From positions 1 through 52,286 of the forward strand of contig CAYVTB010000001.1 in the NCBI GenBank assembly GCA_964454365.1: 52,286 nucleotides of DNA, read 5' to 3'. Below, one piece after another: positions 148-24,152 of the stretch. Position 1 is the first letter of the stretch, and each line of letters begins with the position of its first letter. The DNA is from an uncultured Bacteroides sp. (lineage in GTDB: Bacteria; Bacteroidota; Bacteroidia; Bacteroidales; Muribaculaceae). The notes below the pieces were generated by a model. It ran no database searches, had not been told where the DNA came from, and saw only the letters and a program-made list of their open reading frames with translations. Position numbers and translations under genes: made by a program.

Positions 148-1248
148 TTATTTAGTTTCGGGAATTGTAGGTGTCATAGGAATGGTGCTGTCTGCATCGG
201 TCCAGTCGTTGACATCAACCTTCAACTTGATAGGTGCGCCGAGAACGGGTTCACCGGGAGTAGGATCATCAGGGTCTACATTACCTGCACCGATGGTGAA
301 GTCAAGAGTGTAGATATATTTCTTACCCTGCTCCCAAGTTCCTGACAGAGGAATCGAGGCCCATGCATACTGGCGCTTCTGGCCATTGGCATCCTTAACT
401 GTATCGCTTGAGTAAGGATACATCACGAAGCCGTTATCAGTACGGGTGATTCGTACAAGTACACTGATGTATGATTCGCGTGCTACGTTGTCAGGGTCAC
501 CGGTAGGACTCCACGGAGTAAGGGTCTGAGGCAGCAGCATTGCGTTACCCGAGGGGCCCATGATGCTCTGAGGCGTCGAATTAAGAGTAACGGTATCACA
601 GCTGCTGGTGTAGACTGCAGTGTCATGCCAGTCGTCAAGAGTCCATTGCTCGGTAGCGAAATCAAACGATCCCATATACTGTGCGCGACCGATACGCACA
701 CCCGTTACCTTGAAGGTATATGTGGGGTTCTCTGATTTTGCGCGAACTTCAATCTGCGAGAGACGGTGGTCGAAAGTAAGTTCGACACCTGAAGTTTCAT
801 TATTCTTACGGTTACCGGTTGCACTGGCGGTTATGAAGTCGACCTGGTCGGCGATATCGTCGGCAACTGCAAAGCTTTCAAGTTGCAATCCTGCCTTGCC
901 ATCTACTACTGTAACATCCGCGCCAAGCTCATCCTGTGAAGGAGCATAGGCATAGAACTGAAGGGTCTCGTCATTTTCAAGCCACGAGTACTTTTCACTC
1001 GAGGTGAAATAAGAGTCAGCACCCTTAACAAAGTTGGCATTTTCAAAGTATGGAGTGGTACCGTCAAAGGCCGTCACATAGATTGAACTTAAGTTGGAGT
1101 TGGTCGTCTCGGTTGCACGAGATGCCATGCCTGAGCGGAATGAAATTGCTTCATTGCTCGTGCGGACGTCGACAGGCTCGTCGCTGGCGCAAGAGGCCAT
1201 TGTGAGAGCTGAAAGTGCGGCGATCAGGATTAGTGGTTTTGTGCTCAT
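148..1248 (-). CDS. Type V pilin / fimbrillin family lipoprotein (Mfa-like)
   Basis: Lipobox TMAS-C followed by acidic residues. AISF..SRA processing-type motif, LTFDHRLSQI, WEQGKKYIYTLDF and a C-terminal V..W donor-strand-like segment. Confidence 0.85.
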   Translation of the reverse strand: MSTKPLILIAALSALTMASCASDEPVDVRTSNEAISFRSGMASRATETTNSNLSSIYVTAFDGTTPYFENANFVKGADSYFTSSEKYSWLENDETLQFYAYAPSQDELGADVTVVDGKAGLQLESFAVADDIADQVDFITASATGNRKNNETSGVELTFDHRLSQIEVRAKSENPTYTFKVTGVRIGRAQYMGSFDFATEQWTLDDWHDTAVYTSSCDTVTLNSTPQSIMGPSGNAMLLPQTLTPWSPTGDPDNVARESYISVLVRITRTDNGFVMYPYSSDTVKDANGQKRQYAWASIPLSGTWEQGKKYIYTLDFTIGAGNVDPDDPTPGEPVLGAPIKLKVDVNDWTDADSTIPMTPTIPETK

Positions 1249-1374
1249 AATAATATGTGTTTTTTAATATAGTAATCTATATGTGTTTTTTATTTCTCTT
1301 TATAATATTAAAACAATTCGTAACACCAAAAGTTTGCTCATGATTATGTTTTTTTCTTGGCGAAAAAGACCAAA

Positions 1375-2340
1375 TTACATGTGCATATCGATATATACAG
1401 GTTGCCACTCATTGACATCGGGAACAATTCCTGCACCCGGTTGCTCGGCCGGAGGCTCGGGCAGGGGAAGCCCCCTGAGAATAATGTGGACATGGCGGGG
1501 ATCGGGAGCCTTTGAGACCTGATCGGTTACGTCAAACGTGTGGTACCACTTGCTGCCGTCGGTCAGCACCATATAAACCGTAAGCATGTGACGGGCAGAA
1601 TTCGTCGGACTTTCGCCGAAGGTCAGGAATTCACCGTGTAGGGAGTCTTCGTCGCGTTCGGCATGCAGCGTAAAGGTCATCGTGACATGCGCGTCTGTTG
1701 CCGACTGTGCTCCGAGACTGTAGCCTTCAGCCATGCCGGAAATTGTGGCATCGATATCAGATGATCTGACACCATCTATATTATCGACATCGTAGATATC
1801 TACTATATAATGACACACTGCTTCCTGAGGATAAAGCGTGATTGTCTGCTTTCCGGTGTGGGGACCGATTTCGATGTTATTCGTGCGATTTGTCCACAAC
1901 ATTCCGGGAGTGACAGCCATTCGCTCCGACTCAGCTTCTTCGGAACGGGGCAGCGAATATGAACTCAGATTTTGGGCCGCCAATTGTGCGGCATCGGAGG
2001 TATAGACTTCCATCTTCTCGATATCCTCGTTGTTGCGCACATAAGCCCAGTCGGTGTTATCGCCGTTCATATACAATGCGTGACAGGTTCCGAAAGGAGC
2101 CTTGATAAGACCACCCGTGCGGTTTGCGAAAATAAATCGCATCGGGGATTTTCCATCGTTATCATAAAGATATAAAGCCATGGAAGAGGGATTGGCATCC
2201 GGTGCATATCGCCAGTCAAACACGACCTCGAGCTCACTGGTGAGCGATTCTTCCATATAAAGATATTTGTGACGGCACGACGTCAGCGAGAGCAAGACAG
2301 CGATGACGGCAACTGCCTTTCCGATTACATTGTATTTCAT
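1375..2340 (-). CDS. DUF5119-like fimbrial accessory lipoprotein
   Basis: Lipobox LTS-C-RHK, VVFDW, FLTFG, FDVTDQV and C-terminal PDVNEW. Lies between DUF3575 and fimbrillin genes. Confidence 0.75.
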   Translation of the reverse strand: MKYNVIGKAVAVIAVLLSLTSCRHKYLYMEESLTSELEVVFDWRYAPDANPSSMALYLYDNDGKSPMRFIFANRTGGLIKAPFGTCHALYMNGDNTDWAYVRNNEDIEKMEVYTSDAAQLAAQNLSSYSLPRSEEAESERMAVTPGMLWTNRTNNIEIGPHTGKQTITLYPQEAVCHYIVDIYDVDNIDGVRSSDIDATISGMAEGYSLGAQSATDAHVTMTFTLHAERDEDSLHGEFLTFGESPTNSARHMLTVYMVLTDGSKWYHTFDVTDQVSKAPDPRHVHIILRGLPLPEPPAEQPGAGIVPDVNEWQPVYIDMHM

Positions 2341-3605
2341 AGTGTCTCTCCTTTCCGAGGATTATAGTTTCCTCTACCGACGAGCCACACGAGGGAGATC
2401 TCGGCCTTTGTGGGTCCGAACCAGCGCAGGCGGTGGGTCGACTGCCAGATATAGTATTTGCCCTTGGGCACATATTCGTAATAAGTACCTCCGAGATAGC
2501 CTATTCCTATCGAGAAGTCAATATTGAGTCTGCGGCTGACAGGAAGCGAATAGCCATATTCCACTCCTGCGACCACGTTGCAGCGGTCCCAAAGGGTGCC
2601 ATGAGGTTTACCGCCCATGTAGCCGCGTCCACCGAGCTCGAAGTCATAGGTAACCACGCCGGCATAAACGCCGACATGATGTCCCGTCAGAGGCTTGCGA
2701 TGGGCTGCCTTGCCAAACCAGCGGCGGGCACCTAAAGTACCGCCGTAAGCGCGCCAGTAATAATGAGTGCGGTTAACGTCCCACCAGCCGTACATCCAGT
2801 CAGCTGTGACAGACCATCCGCGGCCGACATAAATGTCAGCACCGACATGCGGGATAAGGAGCGCGTCGGAGAGAAGATTAGTCTTAAGACCGATATAAAG
2901 AGGACGATGATATTCCACCGGCGCTGGTGACATTGTCAGCGTCCCGGGCGCGGGAACTAAGTTTACCGGCAGCATGGGAACGGCCGTGGGACCTTCCGGA
3001 GTAATACGTTTCAATGCATCTTCATAATCGAGGACAATTGTCGAAAAACGCAGCGATGGAAAAATGTTCCTGTATAAATACAGATAAGGAACGCCGCCGC
3101 GCAGGGCCTTGAGACTAGCAAGCGGATGTTCTATTTCCGAGCCGGAGGCTGTTCCCTCGTCAGTAACCCTGTCGAGCAGATCGAGAACTTCATCACGATA
3201 AGGCACATTCTCATCGGCAAGAACCATAGAACGCAATCCCGTCCAGTCGCGACCGAGATAATTGAAGGAAATGACGGAATCCTCGACAATTCCGCGGTCA
3301 CGGAAAATGTCAAAGATTGCTTCAGCACGCTTTTTAGAAAGATAATCATTAAAGCTTACAGAACCTTCCGGAGAGGCTGCGCCGACTACTGAAACGGATT
3401 TCAGCGTGCGCCTCATGGCATTCAGGGAGTCCGACTCCAGTCGACGGAATATGCTGTCGAGACGGTCACCGTTATTCATGAATTCGGGATCCACATTGAT
3501 ATGGGACTGTCTGAAACCTATTGTAACAGAGTCAGCAGAAACACGCGAGAAAGCCGGATAGCTTCCCGCGAGCATTAATAATATTATAGATAAAATCTTC
3601 TTCAT
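2337..3605 (-). CDS. DUF3575 outer-membrane protein with N-terminal OmpA-like domain
   Basis: GAASPEG..N..LS..RA (OmpA-like), LKTNLLSDA and WFGPTKAEISLVWL (DUF3575). Start moved to MKKILSII at 3605, which gives a signal peptide. Overlaps the next gene by 4 nt. Confidence 0.85.
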   Translation of the reverse strand: MKKILSIILLMLAGSYPAFSRVSADSVTIGFRQSHINVDPEFMNNGDRLDSIFRRLESDSLNAMRRTLKSVSVVGAASPEGSVSFNDYLSKKRAEAIFDIFRDRGIVEDSVISFNYLGRDWTGLRSMVLADENVPYRDEVLDLLDRVTDEGTASGSEIEHPLASLKALRGGVPYLYLYRNIFPSLRFSTIVLDYEDALKRITPEGPTAVPMLPVNLVPAPGTLTMSPAPVEYHRPLYIGLKTNLLSDALLIPHVGADIYVGRGWSVTADWMYGWWDVNRTHYYWRAYGGTLGARRWFGKAAHRKPLTGHHVGVYAGVVTYDFELGGRGYMGGKPHGTLWDRCNVVAGVEYGYSLPVSRRLNIDFSIGIGYLGGTYYEYVPKGKYYIWQSTHRLRWFGPTKAEISLVWLVGRGNYNPRKGETL

Positions 3606-3715
3606 CTCTTCTTGACTGTCGGCGTCGAGCACCGTAACAAGCATTTGTGTGTTCTGATAGGATTAGTATCACTATGATAACACACGCACTTACAAATCTG
3701 TTCGCGCACGTCCGA

Positions 3716-10435: not shown

Positions 10436-12154
10436 ATGAAAAAAGCTTTACTCTTTCTTTCCATGGGTTGCATCTGTGGTGCAATGAACGCCGAAATGGT
10501 TGCTCCCAAGATCTTTGATACCGTCAGTTTCCAGAAAATTTCACCCGACGGTCGTTACATTGTCTCAGAAATGTATGGTCAGGTTCAGATTTTTGACTTA
10601 GTCGAAAACACCGTCTACAACTACATTGACGAGTATGGCACCCAGAGCTGGAGTATCGGCATTGGCAATGCTTTCAGCGAACAGAATATCCTGGTCGGCA
10701 GCGCCGAAATTGACTCTAACACCGCCTACTGGCAGAATGGCAAATGGCATAGCCTTCCTCTCACAGGCGAAGAAAAGAGCAACAACATGGCCAACGGTAT
10801 CACAGCCGACGGATCGCGTATCTGCGGTACTGTGAGCATCGTTGAAATGACTCTTGATGACGCCACCATGACAGTTCCCGTCATGTGGCAGCGCAATGAA
10901 GAAGGCACCTACGACAATTATGTCATCCTTCCTCATCCCGAAGCAGATTATTCGGGCCGCGCTCCCCAGTACGTTACAGCTATCTCTATCAGCCCCGACG
11001 GCAAGACTATCGCCGGTACCGTTACCGACTGCGCCGGCCGTCTCGTTATGCCTATCGTTTATACTGAAAACGAAAACGGCGAGTGGTCCTACAGCCTCCC
11101 CATGGAGAAATTCATCAACCCCAACCACGTTGAACTTCCTCCTTACCCCGGTGAATATCCCATGTGGCCCGATGCAAAAGACTACATGACCGATGAAGAA
11201 ATCGAAGCCTATAACGCAGCTTATGACGAATGGGTAGCGAACTTCTACCAGGGTGAGATGCCCGAATACACCGCCTATATGACGGAAGAGGAAAAGGCCA
11301 GCTATGAAGCAGCCTACGACAACTGGCAGAAAGAAGCTACTGAATTCGAAGAAAAGCAGAGCTTATTCCTCGAGGCTCTCGATGAAATCTGCAGCGCCTC
11401 GACTTCGATTGTCTTCAACAACATCCTCCTCAGTCCCGACGGTAAGCAGATCGCTGTGACAGCCATCACCGTCGTTCCCGATCCCAACAGCTGGATTCCC
11501 GGTGGTACAAAGGAGATTCCCCACATCTGGACAATCGACCTTGCAAGCGGCGAAATCCAGAAGTATGAAGATGCCGAGGCTAACCTCCACGGCTGGTATG
11601 CCGACGGTACCATCACCGCCTGGGGCAACATCTGGGATGCCAATCCTGCGGCTTACATCCTCAAGGACGGCAAATCAACCTCTTTCGTCGACTATATCAA
11701 CGGCATCAACCCCGAACTCCAGGCATGGGTTAAAGAAAATATGACCCACGTTGTCGAGAGCTATGACTGGGAAACCGAGGAAGTTATCCAGGAAGAAGGT
11801 CTTTATGTAGGTCTTCCCCTGTTCTCAGCCGACATGAAAACCCTCGCATGCTGGACTCCTACCATGTGGGACTACGACATCATGTATCAGGGCTATGTCT
11901 TTGACCTCGCTCAGTTCAACGGTGTTAACTCGGCTGTCGCTGCCGGTGATCTCGCAGTATATGTCAACCAGGCCGGTGATATCGTAGTCAACGGCGATGC
12001 TGCCACTCTCCGGGTCTACAACCTCCAGGGCGTGTGCGTGGCAAGTGCTTCCAATGTTTCCGGTGTGGTTGATGTAACACTCGCAAGCGGCGTATATGTT
12101 GTCAAGGCTGTCTCAGCCAACGGCGTTGTAAACGTTGCCAAGGTTGTGAAATAA
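10436..12154 (+). CDS. Secreted beta-propeller-like protein with T9SS C-terminal sorting domain
   Basis: Signal peptide, repeated IS/LSPDG..I blade motifs, and C-terminal VYNLQG...LASGVYVVK...KVVK typical of a T9SS CTD. Confidence 0.7.
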   Translation: MKKALLFLSMGCICGAMNAEMVAPKIFDTVSFQKISPDGRYIVSEMYGQVQIFDLVENTVYNYIDEYGTQSWSIGIGNAFSEQNILVGSAEIDSNTAYWQNGKWHSLPLTGEEKSNNMANGITADGSRICGTVSIVEMTLDDATMTVPVMWQRNEEGTYDNYVILPHPEADYSGRAPQYVTAISISPDGKTIAGTVTDCAGRLVMPIVYTENENGEWSYSLPMEKFINPNHVELPPYPGEYPMWPDAKDYMTDEEIEAYNAAYDEWVANFYQGEMPEYTAYMTEEEKASYEAAYDNWQKEATEFEEKQSLFLEALDEICSASTSIVFNNILLSPDGKQIAVTAITVVPDPNSWIPGGTKEIPHIWTIDLASGEIQKYEDAEANLHGWYADGTITAWGNIWDANPAAYILKDGKSTSFVDYINGINPELQAWVKENMTHVVESYDWETEEVIQEEGLYVGLPLFSADMKTLACWTPTMWDYDIMYQGYVFDLAQFNGVNSAVAAGDLAVYVNQAGDIVVNGDAATLRVYNLQGVCVASASNVSGVVDVTLASGVYVVKAVSANGVVNVAKVVK

Positions 12155-12182
12155 TATAACGACTTTATAAATACTCATTTAA

Positions 12183-12223
12183 ATTCACTACAAAGGACCT
12201 TCGGGCCCTTTGTGGTGAGTTTT
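12183..12223 (+). terminator. UUCG-tetraloop hairpin between the propeller gene and tlpA
   Basis: ATTCACTACAAAGGACC-TTCG-GGCCCTTTGTGGTGAGT followed by TTT. Confidence 0.6.
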
Positions 12224-12236
12224 GATTAAAAAGACG

Positions 12237-12734
12237 ATGAAAAAACTACTGACACTTTGCGTAGCCGCCTGTCTCGGTCTCGCATTATCTTTCCAAGCTG
12301 CAGCTCAGCTTCCTGCAGTACAACTCAAAGACCTCCGTGGACGCACGGTCAATACCACTCAGATCAATAACGACGGGAAGCCCTATGTCATCAGTTTCTT
12401 CGCTACCTGGTGTAAACCCTGCATGCGTGAGCTCAAGGCTATCGCCGAGGTATATCCCGACTGGCAGGAAGAAACCGGAATGAAAATGTATATTGTTTCC
12501 ATCGACGACGCCCAGAATCTCTCGAAAGTTCGTCCCCTGGTCGATACCGAAGGTTGGGAATACGAGGTGCTCCTCGATACCAATAATGACCTTTTCCGCG
12601 CCCTGGGCCTCCAGACCGTCCCCCACGTTCTCGTGTTTGACGGCTCCGGCAAGATGATTATGAATCACTCGGGTTATACCGACGGTTCTGAAACCGAAAT
12701 AATCGAGACTATCCGTAAATCACTCAATAAATGA
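12237..12734 (+). CDS. TlpA-family thiol-disulfide oxidoreductase (exported)
   Basis: FFATWCKPC active site and cis-Pro-type TVP. Signal peptide ends AAA-Q. ATG at 12237. Confidence 0.93.
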   Translation: MKKLLTLCVAACLGLALSFQAAAQLPAVQLKDLRGRTVNTTQINNDGKPYVISFFATWCKPCMRELKAIAEVYPDWQEETGMKMYIVSIDDAQNLSKVRPLVDTEGWEYEVLLDTNNDLFRALGLQTVPHVLVFDGSGKMIMNHSGYTDGSETEIIETIRKSLNK

Positions 12735-14407
12735 CCCGCCGCGTCGTAAACTCAGTGGCCGCCGCGACACTGGCTCTGGCCGCAATCCCCTACTCTGCCG
12801 AGGCAATTAACATCGGCAAGGATAATGGTGTGGCCCTGCACGGCAGCGTGCAGGCCGATGTCCTATTCCCCCAGGAAGACGAAGCCATCAACACCGGTAC
12901 TTATGATCACAAGGTGCTGTTCAACACCTATGCCGACCTCAATCTCACAAGCAGATATGTAGACGCAGGTGCCCGGCTCGAGTTCATGAAATGGCCTCTT
13001 CCCGGCTATGAGAACGACTTTAAAGGCTGGGGCGTTCCCCACATCTACGCAAAGGGCCGTTATAAAGGCTTTGAACTCACGGCCGGCGACTTCTATGAGC
13101 AGTTTGGCAACGGTTTCATTCTGCGTACTTACGAAGAACGTTCGCTCGGCATCGACAACTCCATCCGTGGCGGGCGGCTCAAGGTAACTGCCGTCCCGGG
13201 CCTGCGACTGACAGCCCTTGGCGGACTTCAGAGACGCTACTGGGACTGGAAAAAATCATCTCAGGTCTACGGTGCCGATGCCGAAGTAATGTTACAGGAT
13301 GTGTTCCGTGGCCTGGCTAAGCACGATCTTTCGTGGACATTCGGCGCATCTTATGTCCTCAAGCATGAAGACGACCAGGATGTCACCATCGCCGGCACTG
13401 ATCTGCGACTTAATCTTCCTAAGAGTGTGAGCGCCTTTGACCTGCGTTCACAGTTCATGAAAGGCAATTTCTCCGTTCTCGGTGAATTTGCATGGAAAGG
13501 TCAGGATCCCTCCTTTGACAACGACTACACCTATGGCAAAGGAACAGCTGTGATGTTGAGCGCATCTTATTCAAAATCAGGTCTCAGCGCCCTAATTCAG
13601 GCCAAGCGCAGCGAGAACATGGCATTCCGCTCCCAACGTCTGATGTCAGGCACCTCGGCGTTCCTGAACAATATGCCCGCCTTCTCCTATCTGCACACTT
13701 ATGCATTGCCTTCCCTCTACCCCTATGCTACCCAGGCAGCCCCGGGCGAATGGGCTTTCCAGGGTGCCTTCGGTTATAACTTCAAGCGCCGCACCGCGCT
13801 TGGCGGCAAATACGGCACCAAATTAAAGCTGAACATCAGCTATATCCGCGGCCTCAATCACGGCACACCCGACTTCATCATCGATGGCGTCGTGAGCGGC
13901 ACCGACGGGACTCCTACAAAGTTCTTCGGCATGGGCGAGGCTTATTACCACGACATCAATCTCATTGTCGAGAAAAAATGGTCATCCTCTGTTTCTCAGA
14001 ACTTCATGTACATGAATCAGATGTACAACATGGATGTCATCGAGGGACATGGCGGCCGCGTCAAATCTAACATTTTCGTTGTCGACACCAAGTGGAAAAT
14101 CGACAACAGATTCACCCTCCGCAACGAGCTCCAGTACCTGCACACCCGCCAGGACCAGAAAGACTGGCTCTACGGACTGCTCGAGCTCTCGATAGCTCCC
14201 TACATGATGGTCACCGTCAGCGACATGTGGAACTGCGGCACCACCGGCAGCCACTACTACAATTTCGGCGTAGCCGGCAACTATCGGTCCAACCGACTGA
14301 CTCTGAGCTATGGTCGCACCCGCGCAGGCTTTAACTGTTCGGGCGGTGTCTGCCGCTATGTACCGGCGACCCATGGTTTCCAGATTGGATATGCATATAC
14401 ATTTTAA
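12731..14407 (+). CDS. DUF6029-like outer-membrane beta-barrel protein
   Basis: Signal peptide, GDFYEQFGNG.ILR..EERSLGIDN, amphipathic strands, C-terminal CSGGVCR and beta-signal GFQIGYAYTF. Confidence 0.8.
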   Translation: MTRRVVNSVAAATLALAAIPYSAEAINIGKDNGVALHGSVQADVLFPQEDEAINTGTYDHKVLFNTYADLNLTSRYVDAGARLEFMKWPLPGYENDFKGWGVPHIYAKGRYKGFELTAGDFYEQFGNGFILRTYEERSLGIDNSIRGGRLKVTAVPGLRLTALGGLQRRYWDWKKSSQVYGADAEVMLQDVFRGLAKHDLSWTFGASYVLKHEDDQDVTIAGTDLRLNLPKSVSAFDLRSQFMKGNFSVLGEFAWKGQDPSFDNDYTYGKGTAVMLSASYSKSGLSALIQAKRSENMAFRSQRLMSGTSAFLNNMPAFSYLHTYALPSLYPYATQAAPGEWAFQGAFGYNFKRRTALGGKYGTKLKLNISYIRGLNHGTPDFIIDGVVSGTDGTPTKFFGMGEAYYHDINLIVEKKWSSSVSQNFMYMNQMYNMDVIEGHGGRVKSNIFVVDTKWKIDNRFTLRNELQYLHTRQDQKDWLYGLLELSIAPYMMVTVSDMWNCGTTGSHYYNFGVAGNYRSNRLTLSYGRTRAGFNCSGGVCRYVPATHGFQIGYAYTF

Positions 14408-14431
14408 AACAACAATATTACACGAAAATCA

Positions 14432-15247
14432 ATGAAAAAAGCCCTTCTCTCTCTCTTGGCTTCCTCCATGCTGCTCTCCTGCAGCGATATCTCCACTGAC
14501 GACCGCTACATTTCTCAGGACAGCGTTGAAGCTCAGCGTGCGGTCCTTATCGAAGACTTCACAGGCCAGAACTGCGTTAACTGCCCTGCCGCTCACGATA
14601 TACTTGAAAAGCTCAGCACGCAGTATGGCGCGATGGTTATCCCCGTCAGTATCCATGCAGGCGGGTTTGGCATTTCTGTTGAATCGACCCGCTACACGGG
14701 CTTGATGACACCCGAGGGCGACATTTATAACGATGCCTGGGGCATCACCGAGTGGCCCAAAGGCGTAGTCAATCGCCACGGCGCTCCTTCCAACGCCTCC
14801 GACTGGGCTGCATTAGTTCGCACAGAAATTGCCCGTCCCACCACCCTTGCAATCGACCTTGAAGCCGGTCTCAGCGACGACGAATCGACGGTAACCGCTA
14901 CCGTCGTTCTAAAGCCTACAGCCAACATCACAGGCAAGTTGCAGGTGTGGATTCTTGAAGACGGTATCGTAGCTTTCCAGAAGGATGACGAGCGCGGACG
15001 CATCCCCGACTATGTCCACAACCATGTCTATCGTGCATCGGTCAACGGTGTCGGCGGCGAAGCTGTCGTGCTTCAGTCCATGATTCACAAAACATTGACT
15101 TTCTCCATCCCCGTGCGCGATACCGAGCACGAACACTGGAACGCTCACAACCTCTCGGTCGTTGCATTCGTCTATGACGACTCGGAAGTACTTCAGGCTG
15201 CCAAGGCCCATGTGTGGACCGACCCTGACTCAGAAACAACCAATTAA
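14432..15247 (+). CDS. Omp28-family outer-membrane lipoprotein (thioredoxin-like)
   Basis: Lipobox LLS-C-SDISTDD, VLIEDFTGQNCVNCP, YVHNHVYR and LSVVAFV. Confidence 0.9.
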   Translation: MKKALLSLLASSMLLSCSDISTDDRYISQDSVEAQRAVLIEDFTGQNCVNCPAAHDILEKLSTQYGAMVIPVSIHAGGFGISVESTRYTGLMTPEGDIYNDAWGITEWPKGVVNRHGAPSNASDWAALVRTEIARPTTLAIDLEAGLSDDESTVTATVVLKPTANITGKLQVWILEDGIVAFQKDDERGRIPDYVHNHVYRASVNGVGGEAVVLQSMIHKTLTFSIPVRDTEHEHWNAHNLSVVAFVYDDSEVLQAAKAHVWTDPDSETTN

Positions 15248-15256
15248 TTATTATAA

Positions 15257-15940
15257 ATGAAGAAATTTTACTTATTACTCTGCGCTGCGGCCCTCGGCTT
15301 GACCGCTCAGGCCCGCCAGCTCACATTCTACATCGGCGACCAGGTCATCACACCCGGTTCTACAGTAGAATTCTCTGACATCCTCATCGAGGAAGAAGGT
15401 GGTGTACAGTATGTAACAATGGCTCCGTCGCTGTCGCTCGGCACCGATCTTTATATGAAGGTCGACATTGTAGCCGACTGCACGTCGGGCCAGACTATCC
15501 AGATGTGTGCCGGCGGTGCATGCTCTACCGGTACAAAGGTCGTTAAAGAAGGCGTCGCTATTTCAACCGGCGCAAAGGTTCCCCTCAAATTCGAGTATGA
15601 AGACGAATTTGACAGCGGTGTAACCATTCCCGACGTTACGACATCTTTCTCTGCCGTATGCCCCGACTACCCCGAGACCAAGATTGAATTTGTTCTCGTG
15701 ATGGGTAGCGAGCTCAATTCTCTTACAGTTATCGAGACTCCCGCAGAGCTCAAGGTCGTTCCCGGCGCTATCGAGTACAATGTAACTTCCGCAACGGAAT
15801 TCTCGCTGTACAACGCAGCCGGCACCTGTGTCCTGAACACTACTCTCAAGGGCAACGGAGCGGTTGCAACCGATTCTCTGGCTGCAGGCATCTATGTTTA
15901 CGCTCTCGGTGCCAAGACCGGTAAAATATATGTAAAGTAA
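15257..15940 (+). CDS. Small secreted protein with T9SS CTD and CxGGxC motif
   Basis: Signal peptide, QMCAGGAC, and C-terminal LYNAAG...LAAGIYVY...KIYVK. Confidence 0.7.
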   Translation: MKKFYLLLCAAALGLTAQARQLTFYIGDQVITPGSTVEFSDILIEEEGGVQYVTMAPSLSLGTDLYMKVDIVADCTSGQTIQMCAGGACSTGTKVVKEGVAISTGAKVPLKFEYEDEFDSGVTIPDVTTSFSAVCPDYPETKIEFVLVMGSELNSLTVIETPAELKVVPGAIEYNVTSATEFSLYNAAGTCVLNTTLKGNGAVATDSLAAGIYVYALGAKTGKIYVK

Positions 15941-15965
15941 TTTAAATCAATTATATCGCAGAACT

Positions 15966-17888
15966 ATGAAGAAAAGTATCCTTATCGTTGCGGCTGCCAT
16001 CACCGCGATGAGTGCCTCGGCATTTGACCTTGCCCCGCGTCATCTCGTCGCCCCTGTACCCGCAAATATGGAAAGTGCGACCATCGAGTTGCCTGCAGCC
16101 CGCATGTCTGCCCCCGCCAAGGCTGCCGATGAGATTTTGTCAATGAATTTCAGTCCCGCCTCCCAGCCCTATCAGGCAATGGGCTTCCAGGATCTGCCTA
16201 TTGGCACAAAGTATGGACAGGCTTTTGAATTCACTGCCACCAATGCCAACTCTTTTGCCGGAAACAGCATCACTGATATTTATTTCTGGACTGGTGTCAA
16301 CAATAAAACCGGCGTCAACAACATCCGCAAAGCAACCGTTTTCCTTGCCGAGGATATTGATGCCACTCCCTTCTATACTCAGGTAGTTGAACTTCCCTCG
16401 TCTCGCTTCACTCCCGTGAATGTTCACCTTGACACTCCCTATGAAATCACGGCCGGCAAAAGGATCTTCGTCGGTACTATTTGCGCAATTTCCGCCTCAG
16501 ACGATTTTCCTCTCGTGGTCGACTATATTAACCATGGCTCTGATGATGTCGGCGGTTGGGTAGGTTTACAGGAGTATGGTTCCAACCAAATGGTCTGGGA
16601 TAACTATTCAACCCAGATAGGTTTCGTAACCATCGGTGTTACAATCCAGGGCAACGCCCTTCCCACCGACATGGTTTCAATTGACGATTATTTTGTATCA
16701 CCCGTTGTCTACACCAGTGAAGGCTTTGAGCTCGATCTTTTCCTCACCAACAATGCCGCAAACACTGTCAAGGACGTAGACATTGAGATTCAGGTCGGTG
16801 ACCAGGCTCCTGAAACTATCAATAAAAAGCTAGATAATGCTCTCGGATTCAACGGTCAGGATATTATTGCCATCAACGGTCTTTTCTATCCCAACGCCAC
16901 AAAGGATGTAACGGTAAAGGCTACTATCACCAAGATCAACGGTAATGATAATACAGATGCCAACAAAGGACTTGAAACATCCATTTCTGTCGTTGACCCC
17001 GATAAGAGTTTCAACCGCAATGTAGTGATCGAAGAATTCACCGGTATCTGGTGTGGTTACTGCCCCATGGGTATCGTCGCCATGGAATATATCCGTGAAA
17101 ACAACAACAACTATTCCTATATTCCCGTAGCAATCCACATTCAGGATGCCCTCTCGGCTACATCCTTCTCAAAGGTAATCAATAACTATAGTGGCGAAGG
17201 CGTGCCCTCGGCAATTCTCAACCGCTGGCAGAGCTCATATCCTTCCCTCGACTACGGCATGCTCGAAGACCTCGAATTTGTAGCTTCTATTCCCGCAATC
17301 GCCACCGTCAACGGCTCTGCCGTCTTCGATGCAGAAACCAAGACAATCCGGGTCGATACCGAGACTCAGTTCTCGTATGACTACACCGACGGCGACAAGA
17401 ACTTCATCCTCAGCTACGCTATTACTGAAGATAATGTAGGTCCCTACAATCAGACCAACTATTACAGCGGTACAAACGAGCTCCCCGGCTGGGGCAATAA
17501 GGGCGAAACTGTCTCGACCATTTACAACGACGTTGCCCGTCAGCTTGATAAATACTCCGGTATTACAGGTTCTGTCCCCGCTAACATCACCAGCGGCGAG
17601 ACCTATTCATTCTCTCACACCATCAATGCCGTTTCTGCCATCAAGAATTTCGAAAACTGCAATGTAGTTGTTTATCTGACCAATATCAAGACCGGCGTCA
17701 TCGAGAACGCCTGCTGGCTCACCAAGGGTAACAACTACAGCGGCGTTAACGACATCCGTCAGGACAATGTAGACGAAAACGCTCCCGTTGAATACTATAA
17801 CCTCCAGGGCATCCGCGTTGCCGAGCCCACCAACGGCCTCTACATCCGTCGCCAGGGCAACACCACCTCCAAGGTTATTATCAAATAA
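15966..17888 (+). CDS. Omp28-related thioredoxin-domain protein with T9SS CTD
   Basis: Signal peptide, VVIEEFTGIWCGYCP, ITED, YNDVAR, and a short CTD EYYNLQG...GLYIRRQG...KVIIK. Confidence 0.85.
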   Translation: MKKSILIVAAAITAMSASAFDLAPRHLVAPVPANMESATIELPAARMSAPAKAADEILSMNFSPASQPYQAMGFQDLPIGTKYGQAFEFTATNANSFAGNSITDIYFWTGVNNKTGVNNIRKATVFLAEDIDATPFYTQVVELPSSRFTPVNVHLDTPYEITAGKRIFVGTICAISASDDFPLVVDYINHGSDDVGGWVGLQEYGSNQMVWDNYSTQIGFVTIGVTIQGNALPTDMVSIDDYFVSPVVYTSEGFELDLFLTNNAANTVKDVDIEIQVGDQAPETINKKLDNALGFNGQDIIAINGLFYPNATKDVTVKATITKINGNDNTDANKGLETSISVVDPDKSFNRNVVIEEFTGIWCGYCPMGIVAMEYIRENNNNYSYIPVAIHIQDALSATSFSKVINNYSGEGVPSAILNRWQSSYPSLDYGMLEDLEFVASIPAIATVNGSAVFDAETKTIRVDTETQFSYDYTDGDKNFILSYAITEDNVGPYNQTNYYSGTNELPGWGNKGETVSTIYNDVARQLDKYSGITGSVPANITSGETYSFSHTINAVSAIKNFENCNVVVYLTNIKTGVIENACWLTKGNNYSGVNDIRQDNVDENAPVEYYNLQGIRVAEPTNGLYIRRQGNTTSKVIIK

Positions 17889-17912
17889 GATAAACTAAAC
17901 CTCAATGACAGC

Positions 17913-17989
17913 CAAGGGCCGGCACCTTCACGGGAGCCGGCCCTTGTTGTAGAAAATAACATCTCCGCCCATAAGAGGAACGGAGATGT
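17913..17989. terminator. Two tandem hairpins terminating convergent genes
   Basis: CAAGGGCCGGC/GCCGGCCCTTG (17913-17946) and ACATCTCCG/CGGAGATGT (17959-17989). Confidence 0.75.
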
Positions 17990-18039: not shown

Positions 18040-18963
18040 TTATTCGACTGTTACGCGGGCCGAAGCGAATACGTTGAGGCCTAATTTATTTGCAATTTCC
18101 TCGATGGCCTTAGCTGCACGGACAGATGTACCGTTGCAGTCAAGCTTGGGACTGTAGGCTGCGATTGCACCGAATCCGGGAAGAATTGCCAGAATCAGAC
18201 CGCTGCGGCTGCTCTTGGCGGGCAGACCTGTGCGCATCATCCATGCACGAGTTTCTTTCTTGGGGCCTTTCACTGCTGCAAGAGTGACGACTCTCGAAGC
18301 GATAGAACCGTCGAAAGCATATTCTTTAGTCACAGGATTGAGACCGTCGGCTGCGATAGTTGCACCCATCGTTGCAAGCTGCTGGGCACTGGCCTTCTGA
18401 GAAATCAGTCTCACATAGAGGTCAATAGCAGTTGCAGCATTGTCATAGAGGGTGAACTCGGCAGCAGCCAGCTTATTCTCTGTATCGGCTGCCTCAACCT
18501 CTGACTTTATTTTTTCATAAAGCTTTACGTCAAACTCAGGCGCACTCGCCGCGAGGTTGATGAAGTTGTTAACCATAATATCCATCTTGCCGTCGGGATC
18601 GCCCTGAGGCACGATGGCGCTAACTGCACGGATACCGTGGCGGCTTACCGGTATTTCAGGTTTTGCCTTGCGGTCGGCGTGGCATACACCCGTACCGCTC
18701 TTCTTCACGAGTTCGTCAGGAGTATTCTGAGTCAGAAGAATCACGGATGTAGGAATCTTGGCAATTTCACCGATAGGAGCGGTCAAACTGCTGTCACCCT
18801 TGTTAATCATTCGTCCGTCGGTCAGAACGACACTGATACCGAAATCTTTCTCGGTACCGGTGGCATAAGTTGAATCGACAGTACCTTCTGAATTTGACTT
18901 GTTGTTTTCATAAGCGTCATAAACCGCTTTTTCAACATCAGTAAAGCTTATTTTTCTTTCCAT
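18040..18963 (-). CDS. Glutaminase-like protein with degenerate active site
   Basis: Glutaminase scaffold motifs FGISVVLTDG, QLATMGATIAADGLNP, GLPAKS and IAAYSPKLD. The catalytic SxxK reads EIAK. Confidence 0.85.
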   Translation of the reverse strand: MERKISFTDVEKAVYDAYENNKSNSEGTVDSTYATGTEKDFGISVVLTDGRMINKGDSSLTAPIGEIAKIPTSVILLTQNTPDELVKKSGTGVCHADRKAKPEIPVSRHGIRAVSAIVPQGDPDGKMDIMVNNFINLAASAPEFDVKLYEKIKSEVEAADTENKLAAAEFTLYDNAATAIDLYVRLISQKASAQQLATMGATIAADGLNPVTKEYAFDGSIASRVVTLAAVKGPKKETRAWMMRTGLPAKSSRSGLILAILPGFGAIAAYSPKLDCNGTSVRAAKAIEEIANKLGLNVFASARVTVE

Positions 18964-19089: not shown

Positions 19090-20280
19090 TTAGCGACCGA
19101 AAAAGCGGCGTAGAGCGGCCGTGTGGTCACCGAGGATGATCACATGATGGTTGCCCAGCGGATTCTTGAGGAAGTAATCGACACTTTCGTCCAGTTTGAG
19201 ACGTATCTGGGTGCGACACATCGAAGGATTGTCAAGATTCTCGACAAGCCGTCCACGCGAAATGAAGTGATGATTCATTTCAGGTCCCCACCATTTCAGG
19301 ACGGTGACATCACCCAGAGGCAGCACGCCTTGCAGGGCAACACCTATTCCACTCTCGAAGTGGCTGCGCAGAATATTAGTACCGGCCATGGTCATGGGCA
19401 GCGTGCAATGTGCGAAAATGATCTCATTACCTTTGGTATCGATGCGCGAGGGATTGGCCATGAAAGCATCGGCACCGGCAACTCGACGGGCAAGCAGCAT
19501 TGTCAGAAGAGCGGGAACGTCGCCTTCACATCCTGCGGGAATGCCCTTGGCGTTTAGAACAGCGAGTGCAAGACAGCCGGTAGTTCCGAGCGGTTCGAGC
19601 AGATCGAAGCACTTGAGGGTAAATGCGTCGAGACGGTGACGCTTAACGACGGCCTCGATCGCCGAAGTGAGTCTCAGAGCTTTGTCAAGATCTTCCTCAG
19701 TAGGTTCTACGCGGCGGAGCGAGTGGATGCCGCTCACGTCGGCCGGCTCCGAGCGGTTGTACTCCTCAATGATCTCATTGAGATCAATGGCAACGAATTC
19801 TATGCCGTAAAGCTCGCTGACAGCATTATAGTCAACATCACTTGAAATAAGCCAGCCTGAGGGGCCCCCCATCAGACCCACACGACAACCTCGCAACGCT
19901 TCCCGAGCCTCGATCGACTGCAGCTCGCGGACCATCTCTGCCGGATTATCGTGGATGATCTTCGCGCCTATACCTTTTGTACCGAGCCACGCAGCGATTT
20001 CCATCGAGGCGGCAAGCGAGTTCTGAAGACCATCGGCAACCAGATAGACCATCTTGACGTCAGACGACTCGATAGCCTCGCGCACGCCCTCCTCGACTCC
20101 TCCTGTTGCGACAAAAAGCAGTACGGTACCAGTCTTGCCTTTGAGGTCCGAAACCGGGACAAGCTCTATGTCAAACACTTTGTCCAATGCAGCAAAAATA
20201 TCCTTGTGAGCAGCTTTTACAGCCTCACTATTGTGCAAGCCCGATATGGCTTGATAAAGTTTCAAAGCAGTTTTTTCCAT
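19090..20280 (-). CDS. L-fucose/L-arabinose isomerase-like protein
   Basis: GCEGD, FAHCT, CRTQI and LGNHHV motifs of the fucose-isomerase-like family. Substrate unknown. Confidence 0.75.
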   Translation of the reverse strand: MEKTALKLYQAISGLHNSEAVKAAHKDIFAALDKVFDIELVPVSDLKGKTGTVLLFVATGGVEEGVREAIESSDVKMVYLVADGLQNSLAASMEIAAWLGTKGIGAKIIHDNPAEMVRELQSIEAREALRGCRVGLMGGPSGWLISSDVDYNAVSELYGIEFVAIDLNEIIEEYNRSEPADVSGIHSLRRVEPTEEDLDKALRLTSAIEAVVKRHRLDAFTLKCFDLLEPLGTTGCLALAVLNAKGIPAGCEGDVPALLTMLLARRVAGADAFMANPSRIDTKGNEIIFAHCTLPMTMAGTNILRSHFESGIGVALQGVLPLGDVTVLKWWGPEMNHHFISRGRLVENLDNPSMCRTQIRLKLDESVDYFLKNPLGNHHVIILGDHTAALRRFFGR

Positions 20281-20302
20281 AATGCAAAATTTATTTCCGC
20301 TA

Positions 20303-20371
20303 CAAAGATATGATATATTTATGAAAATGCCGCGCGAATATTGGCTTGCCGAGAATAATTTTGTATTTTTG
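20303..20371. promoter_or_regulatory. Divergent -7 promoter elements (isomerase-like gene / hut operon)
   Basis: TATCTTTG on the minus strand (20303-20310) and TATTTTTG on the plus strand (20364-20371). Confidence 0.6.
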
Positions 20372-20423
20372 CCAAAGTAACCGCAGGCATGCGGGCTTAA
20401 ACGATAAAAATCCTATTTCTGAC

Positions 20424-22133
20424 ATGGAAAAACGCCTAATAGAATGTGTGCCCAATTTCAGCGAGGGCCGCGACCGCGCCGTCATCGACGCAATCACATC
20501 AAGCATTACTTCAGTGGAAGGGATCAGTCTGCTCGACGTAGATCCCGGAGAAGCCACTAATCGTACCGTAGTCACCTTTGTCGGTGAACCCGAAGCCGTC
20601 GTTGAAGCGGCTTTCCGCGGAATAGCGCGGGCTGCCGAGCTTATAGACATGCGTAAACACCATGGCGCTCACCCGCGCATGGGAGCCACAGACGTGTGCC
20701 CCCTCATACCGGTAAGCGGCGTCACACTTGAAGAATGTGCCGAGATGGCACGCAAACTTGCAAAACGGGTATCCGATGAACTTGGAATACCCGTTTACTG
20801 CTATGAGGCGGCAGCCTTCACCCCCGAGCGCAAGAACCTTGCGGTGTGCCGCGCCGGCGAGTATGAAGCGTTGCCCGAGAAAATGAATCATCCCGGTAAA
20901 GGACCCGACTTCGGCGACCGCCCGTTTGATGAGGCAGCAGCCCGCACAGGTGCCACGACCATCGGTGCCCGCGATTTCCTCATTGCTGTCAACTTCAACC
21001 TTAACTCAACCTCCACTCGCCGCGCCAACGCAATCGCCTTTGACGTGCGCGAAAAGGGCCGCCCCATGCGCGAAGGCGGAAAGGTTACAGGCAAGCCTGT
21101 GAAAGATGAAAACGGCAACCCGGTCATGATTCCGGGAACGCTCAAAGGCACCAAAGCTATCGGCTGGTATATTGATGAATACGGCATAGCTCAGGTTTCA
21201 ATGAATATCACTGACATTGCCGCCACGCCGCTCCACCGCGCATTTGACGAAGTGTGCCGTGCAGCCCTTGCCCGTGGCATCCGTGTTACCGGCACGGAGA
21301 TTGTAGGCCTCGTTCCTAAAAAGGCTCTTGTCGATGCAGGCCGTCATTTCCTCCACGCGCAGCAGCGCTCCACCGGCCTGCCCGAGGAAGAGATAATACG
21401 CATTGCAATCAAGTCTATGGGGCTTGACGAGCTCAAGGAATTCAATCCACGGGAAAAAGTTATCGAATATATCCTCGAAGACGCCGGCGCAAAATCCAAC
21501 AAGCTTGTCGACATGACGCTGAAGGCATTTGCCGACGAGACTGCTTCTGAATCTCCCGCTCCCGGCGGCGGCTCGATTGCCGCATATATGGGAACTCTTG
21601 CCGCGGCACTGGGCACGATGGTTGCCAATCTCTCGGCCCACAAGGCCGGTTGGGACGACCGCTGGGAAGAGTTTTCTGAAGCAGCCGAGGAAGGGCGCCG
21701 TTCACTGGAACAGCTGCGGGACCTTGTCGACGAGGATACCGCCGCTTTCAACCGCATCATGGCCGCAATTTCGATGCCGCGCGGCACCGAGGAAGAACGT
21801 GCCACCCGTGCTGAAGCGCTTGAAGAAGCCACGCTGTATGCCACCGAAGTTCCTCTGAAGACCATGAAAGCTGCTGCTGCGACATTTGATCTGCTCGAGC
21901 GCATGGCCCGTAACGGCAACCCTGCATCGGCCTCGGATGCCGGCGTAGGCGCTATCGCGGCAGAAGCAGCTGTTGCAGGTGCATTCCTCAACGTGCGTAT
22001 TAACGCAGCCGGACTTGCCGACCGCGAAAAAGCCGACTTCCTTGTAAAAAGCGCCGCCACGATTGCCGCCGAGGCTTCGCGTCGTCGCTCAGAGATTGTA
22101 GATATTGTCAATTCCGTTATAGATAAAAACTGA
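20424..22133 (+). CDS. ftcD: Bifunctional glutamate formimidoyltransferase / cyclodeaminase
   Basis: ECVPNFSEGR, HPRMGATDVCP and QVSMN, followed by a cyclodeaminase domain with SPAPGGGS and GNPASASDAGV. Start trimmed to ATG 20424. Confidence 0.95.
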   Translation: MEKRLIECVPNFSEGRDRAVIDAITSSITSVEGISLLDVDPGEATNRTVVTFVGEPEAVVEAAFRGIARAAELIDMRKHHGAHPRMGATDVCPLIPVSGVTLEECAEMARKLAKRVSDELGIPVYCYEAAAFTPERKNLAVCRAGEYEALPEKMNHPGKGPDFGDRPFDEAAARTGATTIGARDFLIAVNFNLNSTSTRRANAIAFDVREKGRPMREGGKVTGKPVKDENGNPVMIPGTLKGTKAIGWYIDEYGIAQVSMNITDIAATPLHRAFDEVCRAALARGIRVTGTEIVGLVPKKALVDAGRHFLHAQQRSTGLPEEEIIRIAIKSMGLDELKEFNPREKVIEYILEDAGAKSNKLVDMTLKAFADETASESPAPGGGSIAAYMGTLAAALGTMVANLSAHKAGWDDRWEEFSEAAEEGRRSLEQLRDLVDEDTAAFNRIMAAISMPRGTEEERATRAEALEEATLYATEVPLKTMKAAAATFDLLERMARNGNPASASDAGVGAIAAEAAVAGAFLNVRINAAGLADREKADFLVKSAATIAAEASRRRSEIVDIVNSVIDKN

Positions 22134-22136
22134 TAT

Positions 22137-24152
22137 ATGACTCTCGAAGAATTCCGTGAAGATATACGCACCGGTATTCCCTCGGTGCTCCCTCCCCCGC
22201 AGCCGCGCGATCCGTCGCTCAACCATGCTCCGCGCCGCAAAGATATTCTTACCCCGGCCGAAAAGGAGCTTGCTCTGGCCAATGCCTTGCGTTACTTCCC
22301 TGCTGAAATGCACGCCGAGCTCGCCCCTGAATTTGCCCGCGAACTTCATGATTACGGTCGTATCTATATGTATCGCCTGAGACCGACCTACCCCATGCAC
22401 GCCCGCTCTATTGACGATTACCCGGCACGGTCACGGCAGGCAGCAGCCATCATGCTCATGATTCAGAATAATCTTGACCCGGCAGTCGCCCAGCATCCCC
22501 AGGAACTAATTACCTACGGAGGCAACGGCGCAGTATTCCAGAACTGGGCACAATATCGCCTTGCGATGAAATATCTGAGCGAAATGACCGACGACCAGAC
22601 CCTTGTCATGTACTCGGGCCATCCCCTGGGTCTTTTCCCGTCACACCCCGGCGCTCCACGCGTCGTTGTCACCAACGGCATGGTGATTCCCAACTATTCC
22701 AAGCCTGATGATTGGGAGAAATTCAATGCTCTCGGTGTATCTCAATATGGCCAGATGACGGCAGGTTCCTACATGTATATAGGTCCTCAAGGCATCGTTC
22801 ACGGCACGACTATCACTGTCCTCAACGCCGCCCGCGCGCTCCGTGGTGGTGACGATATCGCCGGCATGCTCTTCGTGACAGCCGGCCTCGGCGGCATGTC
22901 GGGAGCACAGCCCAAGGCAGCCCGCATTTCCGGGGTTGTCAGCATAACGGCTGAAATCAACCCGGCTGCAGTTGAAAAACGCCACTCACAGGGCTGGGTT
23001 GACGAGGTATATGATGACGTTGACCGCGTGATCGACAGGGCTCTCGAAGCGCAGAAAGCTCGAGAAGCCGTCTCGCTCGCTTACCGAGGCAACATTGTTG
23101 ACCTCTGGGAACGTCTTGCCGACCGCGGGGTCAAAGTAGACCTCGGCAGCGACCAGACGTCGCTTCACAATCCTTGGGCCGGCGGTTACTACCCTGTAGG
23201 CCTGTCCTATGAGGATTCGCTGAAAATGATGGCCGAGAATCCCGACAAATTCAAGGAGGCCGTCAAGGCGTCTCTCAGAAGACACGTCGACGCTGTCAAC
23301 AGACTTGCCGCCGATGGAATGTACTTCTTTGACTACGGCAACGCTTTCCTACTGGAGTCGTCCCGGGCAGGAGCAGATATAATCGGAAAAGACGGCAAGT
23401 TCCGTTATCCTTCCTATGTGGAAGCTATCATGGGCCCGAGATTCTTCGATTACGGGTTCGGACCGTTCCGCTGGGTTTGCACTTCGGGCGACCCGGCCGA
23501 TCTCGCCGTTACCGATCAACTTGCAGCTGAAGAACTTGAACGCCTGCTTGCCGCCGCTCCCGACGATATTAAAGGCCAGCTTGCCGATAACCTTCACTGG
23601 ATCCGCGAAGCAGGCCGCAATAACCTTGTCGTTGGATCTCAGGCTCGCATACTCTATGCCGATTCTGCAGCTCGCACTGCCATTGCCCTCGCCTTTAACA
23701 AGGCCATCCGCGACGGCCGCATTTCAGCGCCTGTCGTGCTGGGCCGCGACCATCACGATGTCTCGGGCACCGATTCACCCTACCGCGAGACTTCAAATAT
23801 AACCGATGGCTCGCAGTTCACCGCCGACATGGCTGTTCAGAACGTCATCGGCGACTCTTTCCGTGGAGCAACCTGGGTATCTCTCCACAATGGTGGCGGC
23901 GTAGGCTGGGGCGAGGTAATCAACGGCGGCTTCGGTATGGTGATCGACGGATCTGAAGAATGTGACCGCCGCATTGCGTCAATGCTTCTTTGGGACGTGA
24001 ATAACGGCATTGCGCGTCGATCATGGGGCCGCAATCAGGGTGCCATGGACGCTATCAGACGGGAAATGGATCGCACTCCCGGCCTGAAGGTTACGATTCC
24101 CAACGTTGCCGACTCTGAAACAATTAAACAAGCTCTTAACTCTATTAGCTGA
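22137..24152 (+). CDS. hutU: Urocanate hydratase (long type)
   Basis: YGQMTAGSYMYIGPQGIVHGT, GLGGMSGAQP, GRDHHD and HNGGGVGWG. Confidence 0.98.
   Translation: MTLEEFREDIRTGIPSVLPPPQPRDPSLNHAPRRKDILTPAEKELALANALRYFPAEMHAELAPEFARELHDYGRIYMYRLRPTYPMHARSIDDYPARSRQAAAIMLMIQNNLDPAVAQHPQELITYGGNGAVFQNWAQYRLAMKYLSEMTDDQTLVMYSGHPLGLFPSHPGAPRVVVTNGMVIPNYSKPDDWEKFNALGVSQYGQMTAGSYMYIGPQGIVHGTTITVLNAARALRGGDDIAGMLFVTAGLGGMSGAQPKAARISGVVSITAEINPAAVEKRHSQGWVDEVYDDVDRVIDRALEAQKAREAVSLAYRGNIVDLWERLADRGVKVDLGSDQTSLHNPWAGGYYPVGLSYEDSLKMMAENPDKFKEAVKASLRRHVDAVNRLAADGMYFFDYGNAFLLESSRAGADIIGKDGKFRYPSYVEAIMGPRFFDYGFGPFRWVCTSGDPADLAVTDQLAAEELERLLAAAPDDIKGQLADNLHWIREAGRNNLVVGSQARILYADSAARTAIALAFNKAIRDGRISAPVVLGRDHHDVSGTDSPYRETSNITDGSQFTADMAVQNVIGDSFRGATWVSLHNGGGVGWGEVINGGFGMVIDGSEECDRRIASMLLWDVNNGIARRSWGRNQGAMDAIRREMDRTPGLKVTIPNVADSETIKQALNSIS

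Follow-up and report, generated by a model that had tools for sequence, protein, structure and literature searches.

A chain of cysteine pairs carries reductant across a membrane in the DsbD cascade, which runs through tmDsbD, cDsbD, and nDsbD and then on to TlpA, ResA, CcmG, or DsbC. Electron transfer across the outer membrane is known from MtrAB, which achieves it via a large barrel. Within the DsbD chain, nDsbD is a non-thioredoxin, immunoglobulin (Ig)-like domain with a Cx5C loop that acts between thioredoxin-fold partners (PMC2631958, PMC3173608). Porphyromonas gingivalis HBP35, which is exposed at the cell surface, acts in vitro as a reductase that depends on its cysteines (PMC2907840). 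Here we describe a locus of five open reading frames (ORFs), all on the + strand of contig CAYVTB010000001.1 (GCA_964454365.1), that encodes a predicted TlpA-like thioredoxin, a DUF6029 outer-membrane barrel, an Omp28 lipoprotein, a PorA-like protein, and an HBP35-like protein. It lies within a window of 52,286 nucleotides (nt), the whole stretch of DNA analyzed. We tend to read the TlpA-barrel-Omp28 module, with modest confidence, as a relay of thiol-disulfide exchange that spans the outer membrane and ends at surface proteins.

The likeness to the DsbD cascade is a chain of cysteine pairs that would carry reductant across a membrane, here predicted from the genes. DsbD is a helical inner-membrane protein, whereas the membrane component here is a beta-barrel of the outer membrane whose cysteines lie in a Cx4C hairpin, and homology between the two was not detected. 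The helical domain of DsbD (PF02683) gave no match on the five proteins, and gene 2 is all-beta in its model. The module would act downstream of DsbD, which is also encoded in the genome. The barrel matches the fold of MtrAB (PDB 6r2q) with a generic Z of 11.3. In contrast to MtrAB, none of the five cysteine pairs forms a CxxCH heme motif, the CxxC motifs preceding M, P, and P rather than H, and the chemistry would be two-electron thiol exchange instead of heme hopping. No description of the module was found by full-text search of a literature from which most subscription journals, and with them the older papers on Omp28 and native gels, were missing. The parts come from known families; the system as a whole and the mechanism proposed for it correspond to no kind described so far.

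The conserved core consists of TlpA, the DUF6029 barrel, and Omp28

The original prediction, made from the nucleotides alone, described five tightly packed co-directional genes whose exported products each carry a cysteine pair. The spacing of -4, 24, 9, and 25 nt between genes 1-5 was reproduced exactly, and all five motifs translate where they had been placed (CKPC at 12411-12422, CSGGVC at 14336-14353, CVNC at 14573-14584, CAGGAC at 15506-15523, and CGYC at 17052-17063). The export signals of the five proteins were assigned by reading the sequence, without a predictor.

Gene neighborhoods were surveyed in six frames in 80 loci of close relatives, with counts limited to loci with enough flank, and in a phylum-wide set of 60 of the 79 other barrel-bearing genomes. 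The named close homologs are mainly Muribaculaceae. Among close relatives, the hairpin is present in 79/79, a CxxC-bearing TlpA lies directly upstream in 76/76, a CxxC-bearing Omp28 lies directly downstream in 75/75, and a gene-4 homolog follows Omp28 in 68/69. Of the phylum-wide loci, 58/60 retain an intact hairpin motif; the genes of the two seemingly without it are frameshifted, and the motif can still be read in a different frame. Upstream of the barrel, a same-strand TlpA is found in 48 of these 60 loci, or in 54 if either strand is allowed. An Omp28 gene lies directly downstream in 37 loci, and 46 have one within 6 kb. A PorA-like gene-4 homolog occurs in only one of the 60, and gene 5 is directly downstream in 29 of 60 close loci; the conserved core is therefore three genes (for TlpA, the barrel, and Omp28), to which the PorA-like and HBP35-like genes are lineage-specific additions.

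Phyletic occurrence in a sample of 301 Bacteroidota genomes follows the same lines. DUF6029 is found in 80 of them. With a profile of the barrel-linked TlpA, 80 genomes reach 153 bits or more and the others do not exceed 123 bits. The barrel and TlpA-subfamily genome sets are identical (80/80), and 38 of the 80 TlpAs were not among the sequences that make up the profile. Six genomes have no TlpA beside the barrel; an orthologue was present elsewhere in 5/5 tested, and the sixth (G268) was found by the profile. In family f31 (L115, L118, L126), a gene of ~205 amino acids (aa), with a TPR in L115, occupies the upstream slot of TlpA, and the TlpA orthologue is located elsewhere. Omp28 scores above its cut-off in 50/301 genomes, all 50 of which have the barrel, and seven genomes with only sub-threshold Omp28 matches have no barrel. 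Absence of co-occurrence would have refuted the original prediction; the genes do co-occur, TlpA with the barrel in 80/80 genomes and Omp28 with the barrel in 50/50 Omp28 genomes, although the conserved unit is three genes and not five.

Thirty barrel genomes are without Omp28 above the cut-off, mostly of family f28 (27 genomes). In nine f28 loci (L162-L170), two CxxC redoxin-like genes, mostly with CPHC, replace Omp28 after the barrel; in the two examined, L163 among them, one product is a redoxin lipoprotein and the other a redoxin whose tail is of the C-terminal domain (CTD) type. Since f28 swaps Omp28 for other CxxC proteins, selection seems to act on an exported dithiol and not on the Omp28 fold. 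In one further locus, the barrel and an Omp28-CTD gene are separated by a gene (L160:8058-8543) for a 161-aa lipoprotein-like CDPC protein that has no Pfam assignment. In an order-level sample, DUF6029 was detected in 171/301 genomes and was not found in 3/3 other genomes of the source's own family. It was likewise not found in 14 control genomes, Bacteroides thetaiotaomicron included. Bacteroides pyogenes has it, and the module is patchy.

A cysteine hairpin in the last outer loop of the barrel

Gene 2 (12731..14407, +; 558 aa) encodes a DUF6029 outer-membrane beta-barrel that matches PF19494 with 580.8 bits against a gathering threshold of 27 (E 4e-174), over profile positions 15-538 of 538. 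The family comprises at least 917 clusters at 50% identity (E up to 1e-30). The AlphaFold2 model (pLDDT 94.6, pTM 0.89) is a barrel covering residues 10-532 of the 533 in the mature protein, with 24 strands counted from DSSP, joined by short turns at one rim and by long loops at the opposite rim, and with a C-terminal Phe. The long loops include L3 and L7, and the longest has ~45 residues. Sequence searches against PDB returned spurious RecA-repeat matches only, and Foldseek scores unrelated barrels alike.

Usher pores have 24 strands, together with a plug and periplasmic N- and C-terminal domains. The pores of the FimD and PapC ushers are the top VIA structural matches of the barrel (Z 17.8 and 16.8, rmsd 4.6-4.9, 11% identity) and have the 24-strand pore in common with it. 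The barrel model, however, is without the usher plug or the periplasmic N- and C-terminal domains, and the five genes do not include one for a chaperone.

The last outer loop, between strands 23 and 24, forms a beta-hairpin (14327..14362, +) that carries C536 and C541 (CSGGVC) in the model. The two residues make a cross-strand pair flanking a two-residue GG turn, and DSSP places the hairpin strands at 508-512 and 515-519 of the mature model. Standard barrel topology predicts this loop to be extracellular. The Cx4C motif is present in 147/150 representatives of 50%-identity clusters, the rest being two fragments and one true loss of the first cysteine, and in 119/120 near homologs, the one exception being partial. 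Few positions of the barrel are as conserved as the hairpin cysteines (weighted value 0.98-0.99), and 106 of the 150 diverse representatives have only these two cysteines past residue 30. No selenocysteine variants were seen by eye in the two frameshifted loci, the only ones inspected for them, and none were found in a literature search.

Covariation among 468 barrel sequences (~263 effective) recovers adjacent strands and couples L3 and L7 to lumen-facing residues. Of the strand partners of the hairpin loop within the top 600 covarying pairs, 15/20 face the lumen (p 0.02). Examples are G513-E460 and V515-T499, numbered on the mature protein, which involve the region where strands 20 and 23 approach their periplasmic ends. 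The pattern suggests that the hairpin is an outer loop folded into the lumen, where it may be within reach of periplasmic TlpA.

A barrel-specific TlpA and a possibly surface-exposed Omp28 lipoprotein

Gene 1 (12237..12734, +; 165 aa) encodes a TlpA/ResA-like protein (Pfam AhpC-TSA/Redoxin) with a signal peptide, no lipobox, and WCKPC at 12408-12422. As an exported thioredoxin fold with a CxxC it is a predicted periplasmic reductant. It matches ResA structures (E 4e-12) and, far more strongly, PDB 2m72 (E 2e-55), which we take to be the PG2175 product. Its scores stay under the named equivalog cut-offs (ResA 60.9 versus 170, TlpA 31.9 versus 230, DsbE 36.6 versus 123), and by its profile it belongs to a TlpA subfamily of its own that is specific to the barrel.

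Gene 3 (14432..15247, +; 271 aa) encodes an Omp28-family lipoprotein (NF033782, 271 bits versus a cut-off of 150) with lipobox Cys17, a thioredoxin-like CVNC, and an Omp28 domain, and matches PDB 2r2c (E 2e-9). The lipobox column is C in 70/70 homologs. The mature protein starts with the acidic C-SDISTDD, a partial fit to the SDDDD/SDDFE consensus for surface export of Bacteroidota lipoproteins (PMC5080379), and positions +2 to +7 are net-acidic in 52 of the 57 lipobox-bearing homologs among 70 examined. Omp28 is probably located on the outer face of the barrel.

The original prediction depended on cysteines that are invariant across homologs, and the core proteins bear this out: both columns are C in 85/85 rows for TlpA, 117/118 for the barrel, where the exception is a frameshifted gene, and 71/71 for Omp28.

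A likely orthologous operon in Porphyromonas gingivalis

P. gingivalis PG2175-PG2172 (PGN_0120-0123) has the same four-gene order by locus tag and annotation. Together with the Omp28 sequence match (PDB 2r2c) and the PorA fold (PDB 6kjk), this makes it likely to be the orthologous operon. PG2175 is described as a thioredoxin-domain protein, PG2174/PGN_0121 as an uncharacterized 65 kDa outer-membrane protein, and PGN_0122 as Omp28 (PMC13744359). Among the four products, PorA alone has been the object of study, as an activator of PorXY-SigP that works through its CTD; no paper on the barrel was found. PGN_0119 is a respiratory-chain subunit. In P. gingivalis, hbp35 (PGN_0659) is outside the operon, whereas the HBP35-like gene is fifth in the operon here.

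For a native gel of 12 bands (PMC10947112, Table S1), 97 of 1232 rows, the first 96 and one more, were correlated. PGN_0121 and Omp28 both peak in bands 7-8, and over bands 1-9 Omp28 is the closest to PGN_0121 of the proteins compared (rank 1/93, r 0.997). Their ratio is near-constant at 1.75-2.25 in bands 5-9 (rank 1/66 for constancy). About 65% of the Omp28 signal is in bands 5-9, with a second, faster pool, and PGN_0120 runs apart, with 4% of its signal in those bands (PMC10947112). This is no more than suggestive of a barrel-Omp28 complex from which the likely TlpA orthologue is free. The pair is not among the complexes listed in section 3.1 of that paper. HBP35 (PGN_0659) peaks broadly in bands 7-9 (rank 9/93 versus PGN_0121; PMC10947112), which may be a mere effect of A-LPS modification.

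PGN_0120-0122 are depleted in transposon sequencing (Tn-seq), with log2 values of -3.9 to -7.9 (PMC5581868). Such depletion is common, affecting 482/2090 genes in both screens, and polarity on porA is possible, so that the support is weak. The PGN locus tags of the operon were not found in the supplements of PMC12152298 and PMC8754138.

PorA-like and HBP35-like predicted surface proteins

Gene 4 (15257..15940, +; 227 aa) encodes a PorA homolog with an Ig-like domain carrying the CAGGAC hairpin and a type IX secretion system (T9SS) CTD (TIGR04183, 25.1 versus a cut-off of 23). It had been predicted to be a small T9SS cargo. The CTD agrees with this, and the notion of a generic cargo gives way to a structural homolog of the T9SS regulator PorA. 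The model has a FimH-like Ig fold, and its top match in both fold searches is the PorA N-terminal domain 6kjk (Foldseek E 2.4e-6; Z 14.4, with the runner-up at 9.9; rmsd 2.7, 127/134 residues, 14% identity). Gene 4 is identified with PorA because of this fold match; sequence searches gave no link, 6kjk not being listed up to E 10 with phmmer or with a 62-row profile. The position of gene 4 after omp28 is that of PG2172 after PG2173. Its cysteine columns are C in 62/62 and 61/62 rows. The list of 50 fold matches obtained for gene 4 did not contain nDsbD, hence we claim no homology between the two.

PorA activates PorXY-SigP, and a part of it reaches the surface without the T9SS by a route that is not known (PMC7712824, PMC12152298). 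The CTD alone signals, and activation of PorY by the P. gingivalis PorA CTD needs at least six basic residues (PMC12152298). Gene 4 has five Lys in its last 72 residues, and 46/62 rows have at least six basic residues. The source genome contains a gene with a PglZ domain, presumably the domain found in PorX.

Gene 5 (15966..17888, +; 640 aa) encodes an HBP35-like putative surface thioredoxin (PF11551, 35 bits versus 34.9). It combines an N-terminal part of ~330 aa without a family, a WCGYC thioredoxin, an Omp28 domain, and a short CTD-like tail. The tail (YNLQGIRV...GLYIRRQG...KVIIK) resembles a short CTD by eye and has no TIGR04183 match. Like the T9SS-type surface protein HBP35 (PDB 5y1a), gene 5 has a WCGYC thioredoxin and an Omp28-like domain, but it has 640 rather than 344 aa, a long extra N-terminal part, and a match that is local only (E 4e-4). 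Hemin binding and insulin-reductase activity are on record for P. gingivalis HBP35 only. Its CxxC is kept in 29/29 of the close loci that have it directly downstream. Of the 31 close loci without an adjacent gene 5, 15 hold a long Omp28-domain protein elsewhere in the locus.

Several loci without a downstream gene 5 (L053, L055-L058, L087, L099) encode Omp28-domain proteins of 1200-1330 aa on the opposite strand, and several of these are divergent, just upstream of tlpA. A second HBP35-like protein in the same genome (G000:C12, +, ~19881-21704) has WCNYC in a 608-aa open frame and is a possible further client of the barrel.

Proposed relay and alternative explanations

In the proposed relay, DsbD would reduce periplasmic TlpA, which would visit the periplasmic mouth of the barrel and reduce the C536-C541 hairpin dipping into the lumen. 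The hairpin would then hand electrons to the CxxC of Omp28, stably seated on the barrel, and Omp28 would in turn re-reduce proteins that the T9SS anchors at the surface, among which the PorA-type hairpin and the HBP35-like thioredoxin are possible targets in this locus. Disulfides of host mucin or immunoglobulin and the capture of heme were suggested as further targets in the original prediction. Exchange between two thioredoxin folds is poor. The gene order alternates thioredoxin, hairpin, thioredoxin, hairpin, thioredoxin, like the alternation of folds in the DsbD cascade. A relay would account for a dedicated donor that accompanies the barrel across genomes yet is not bound to it, for a stable barrel-lipoprotein pair, for the lone conserved cysteine hairpin, and for swappable outer CxxC partners. 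We infer every transfer step from conservation and co-occurrence only. More tentatively, and we regard this extension as possible rather than probable, the hairpin may swing inside the 24-strand barrel, the PorA Ig domain may serve as an nDsbD-like surface shuttle to HBP35-type thioredoxins, and DUF6029 would be the first outer-membrane disulfide conduit.

Several observations weigh against a relay. The lumen position of the hairpin derives from weak, low-rank covariation, and the enrichment over strands 18 to 23 was chosen post hoc. Conserved loop disulfides in barrels can be structural, and one representative of 150 (P0201) has lost the first hairpin cysteine. The surface side of Omp28 is deduced from its acidic N-terminus only. 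The genomes sampled are kin and not independent, and 80/80 exaggerates the number of evolutionary events. In P. gingivalis, PGN_0121 was equated with DUF6029 and PGN_0120 with TlpA from gene order and size, not sequence. On the native gel, Omp28 ranks 3/96 against PGN_0121 when all 12 bands are counted, the unrelated PGN_0179 correlates at 0.990 with PGN_0121 over bands 1-9, and 17/97 proteins peak in bands 7-8 (PMC10947112). The spacing of the gene 4 cysteine pair varies widely, as in a structural staple, and the four cysteines of PorA are dispensable for PorXY activation (PMC12152298), which weakens the case for gene 4 as a step that the relay could not do without. An E. coli dsbA mutant was complemented by HBP35 (PMC2907840), so an oxidizing or isomerizing role is possible.

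The barrel could instead be a channel, gated by the hairpin disulfide, whose substrate might be thiols, peptides, metal, or heme, with a lid-like Omp28 that reduces or binds the substrate and a TlpA that resets the gate; electrons need not then exit the cell. This is unlikely in our judgment, though it would suit the large 24-strand pore with its coupling of L3 and L7 to the lumen, as well as the co-migration of barrel and lipoprotein, a pair that resembles SusCD-type pairs. The model, whose barrel begins at residue 10, shows no TonB plug, the downstream partner can be exchanged for another CxxC subfamily, and no conserved substrate-use genes stood out in the neighborhoods. Hemin binding by HBP35, which does not depend on its cysteines (PMC2907840), would fit a channel. 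An export pore of usher-like size for Omp28, PorA, or small cargo, with TlpA keeping the cargo reduced or isomerizing it before passage, strikes us as improbable. It would explain the usher matches, the FimH-like fold of gene 4, and the arrival of PorA at the surface without the T9SS (PMC7712824, PMC12152298), but the usher similarity is generic (11% identity, rmsd 4.6), the PorA-like gene occurs in a single one of the 60 phylum-wide loci, and PorA ranks only 22/93 against PGN_0121 on the native gel (PMC10947112).

We also give little credence to a structural or folding-only role for all disulfides but that of TlpA, which would then be a private reductase or isomerase for the assembly of a non-redox barrel-Omp28 complex. 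Single loop disulfides are common in outer-membrane proteins. The variable cysteine spacing of gene 4 and the dispensable cysteines of PorA (PMC12152298) would also be expected, but a protein with one two-cysteine hairpin should need no isomerase, the CxxC is invariant wherever it stands in a thioredoxin context (Omp28 and gene 5 alike), and the HBP35 equivalent is catalytic (PMC2907840). The one suggestion for DUF6029 found in the accessible literature, a polysaccharide-export porin proposed from the HHpred similarity of Wzi-like barrels (PMC9603273), appears very improbable here. A feature search did give a 0.90 match to a cluster with Wzi in 10% of its members. Thioredoxin-fold genes, however, are the immediate neighbors in ~140 loci, and such a porin would leave the cysteine hairpin and the TlpA match unexplained.

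Transcript boundaries and surrounding genes

Two strong RNA hairpins flank the five-gene unit on both sides. The first (12181..12222, +; -24.2 kcal/mol, z -6.3, 0/200 shuffles equal) lies between a T9SS cargo gene and tlpA and is likely a terminator or transcript boundary; it was not in the output of the terminator scan. The second (17908..17950, +; -30.7 kcal/mol, z -5.8), 3' of gene 5 and facing a convergent glutaminase gene (18040-18963, -), is likely a terminator. A sigma-70 promoter scan was at chance level (9 versus 8.0) with a model that is ill-suited to Bacteroidota.

The upstream cargo gene (10436-12154, +; 572 aa) encodes a protein with a WD40-like repeat and an acidic helical insert. 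We rejected it as a member of the unit: the hairpin intervenes, and a CxxC is present in only 2/28 homologs. Its homologs are directly upstream of tlpA in 18/70 close loci and 0/60 phylum-wide loci. Elsewhere in the window, Mfa-like fimbrillin, DUF5119, and DUF3575 genes (148-3644, -) form a type V pilus-like cluster, and translations at 20346-24152 (+) resemble histidine-utilization enzymes. The source genome, which is 78% complete, has a single DUF6029 copy and carries the DsbD transmembrane domain, SprA/Sov, and GldK.

Implications for cell-surface redox

Bacteroidota display catalytic thioredoxins on their surface, and the accessible part of the literature found offers no explanation of how these are re-reduced outside the outer membrane. 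With its single barrel, its single cysteine pair, and a donor dedicated to them, the module makes the question testable in the genetically tractable P. gingivalis, a species that expresses the likely orthologues and in which two of these co-migrate. If the relay is true, it would extend Dsb pathways across the second membrane and give DUF6029 a function. It would also suggest a role for PorA's N-terminal domain, which signaling does not need, and the tentative five-step extension would tie this T9SS regulator to cell-surface redox.

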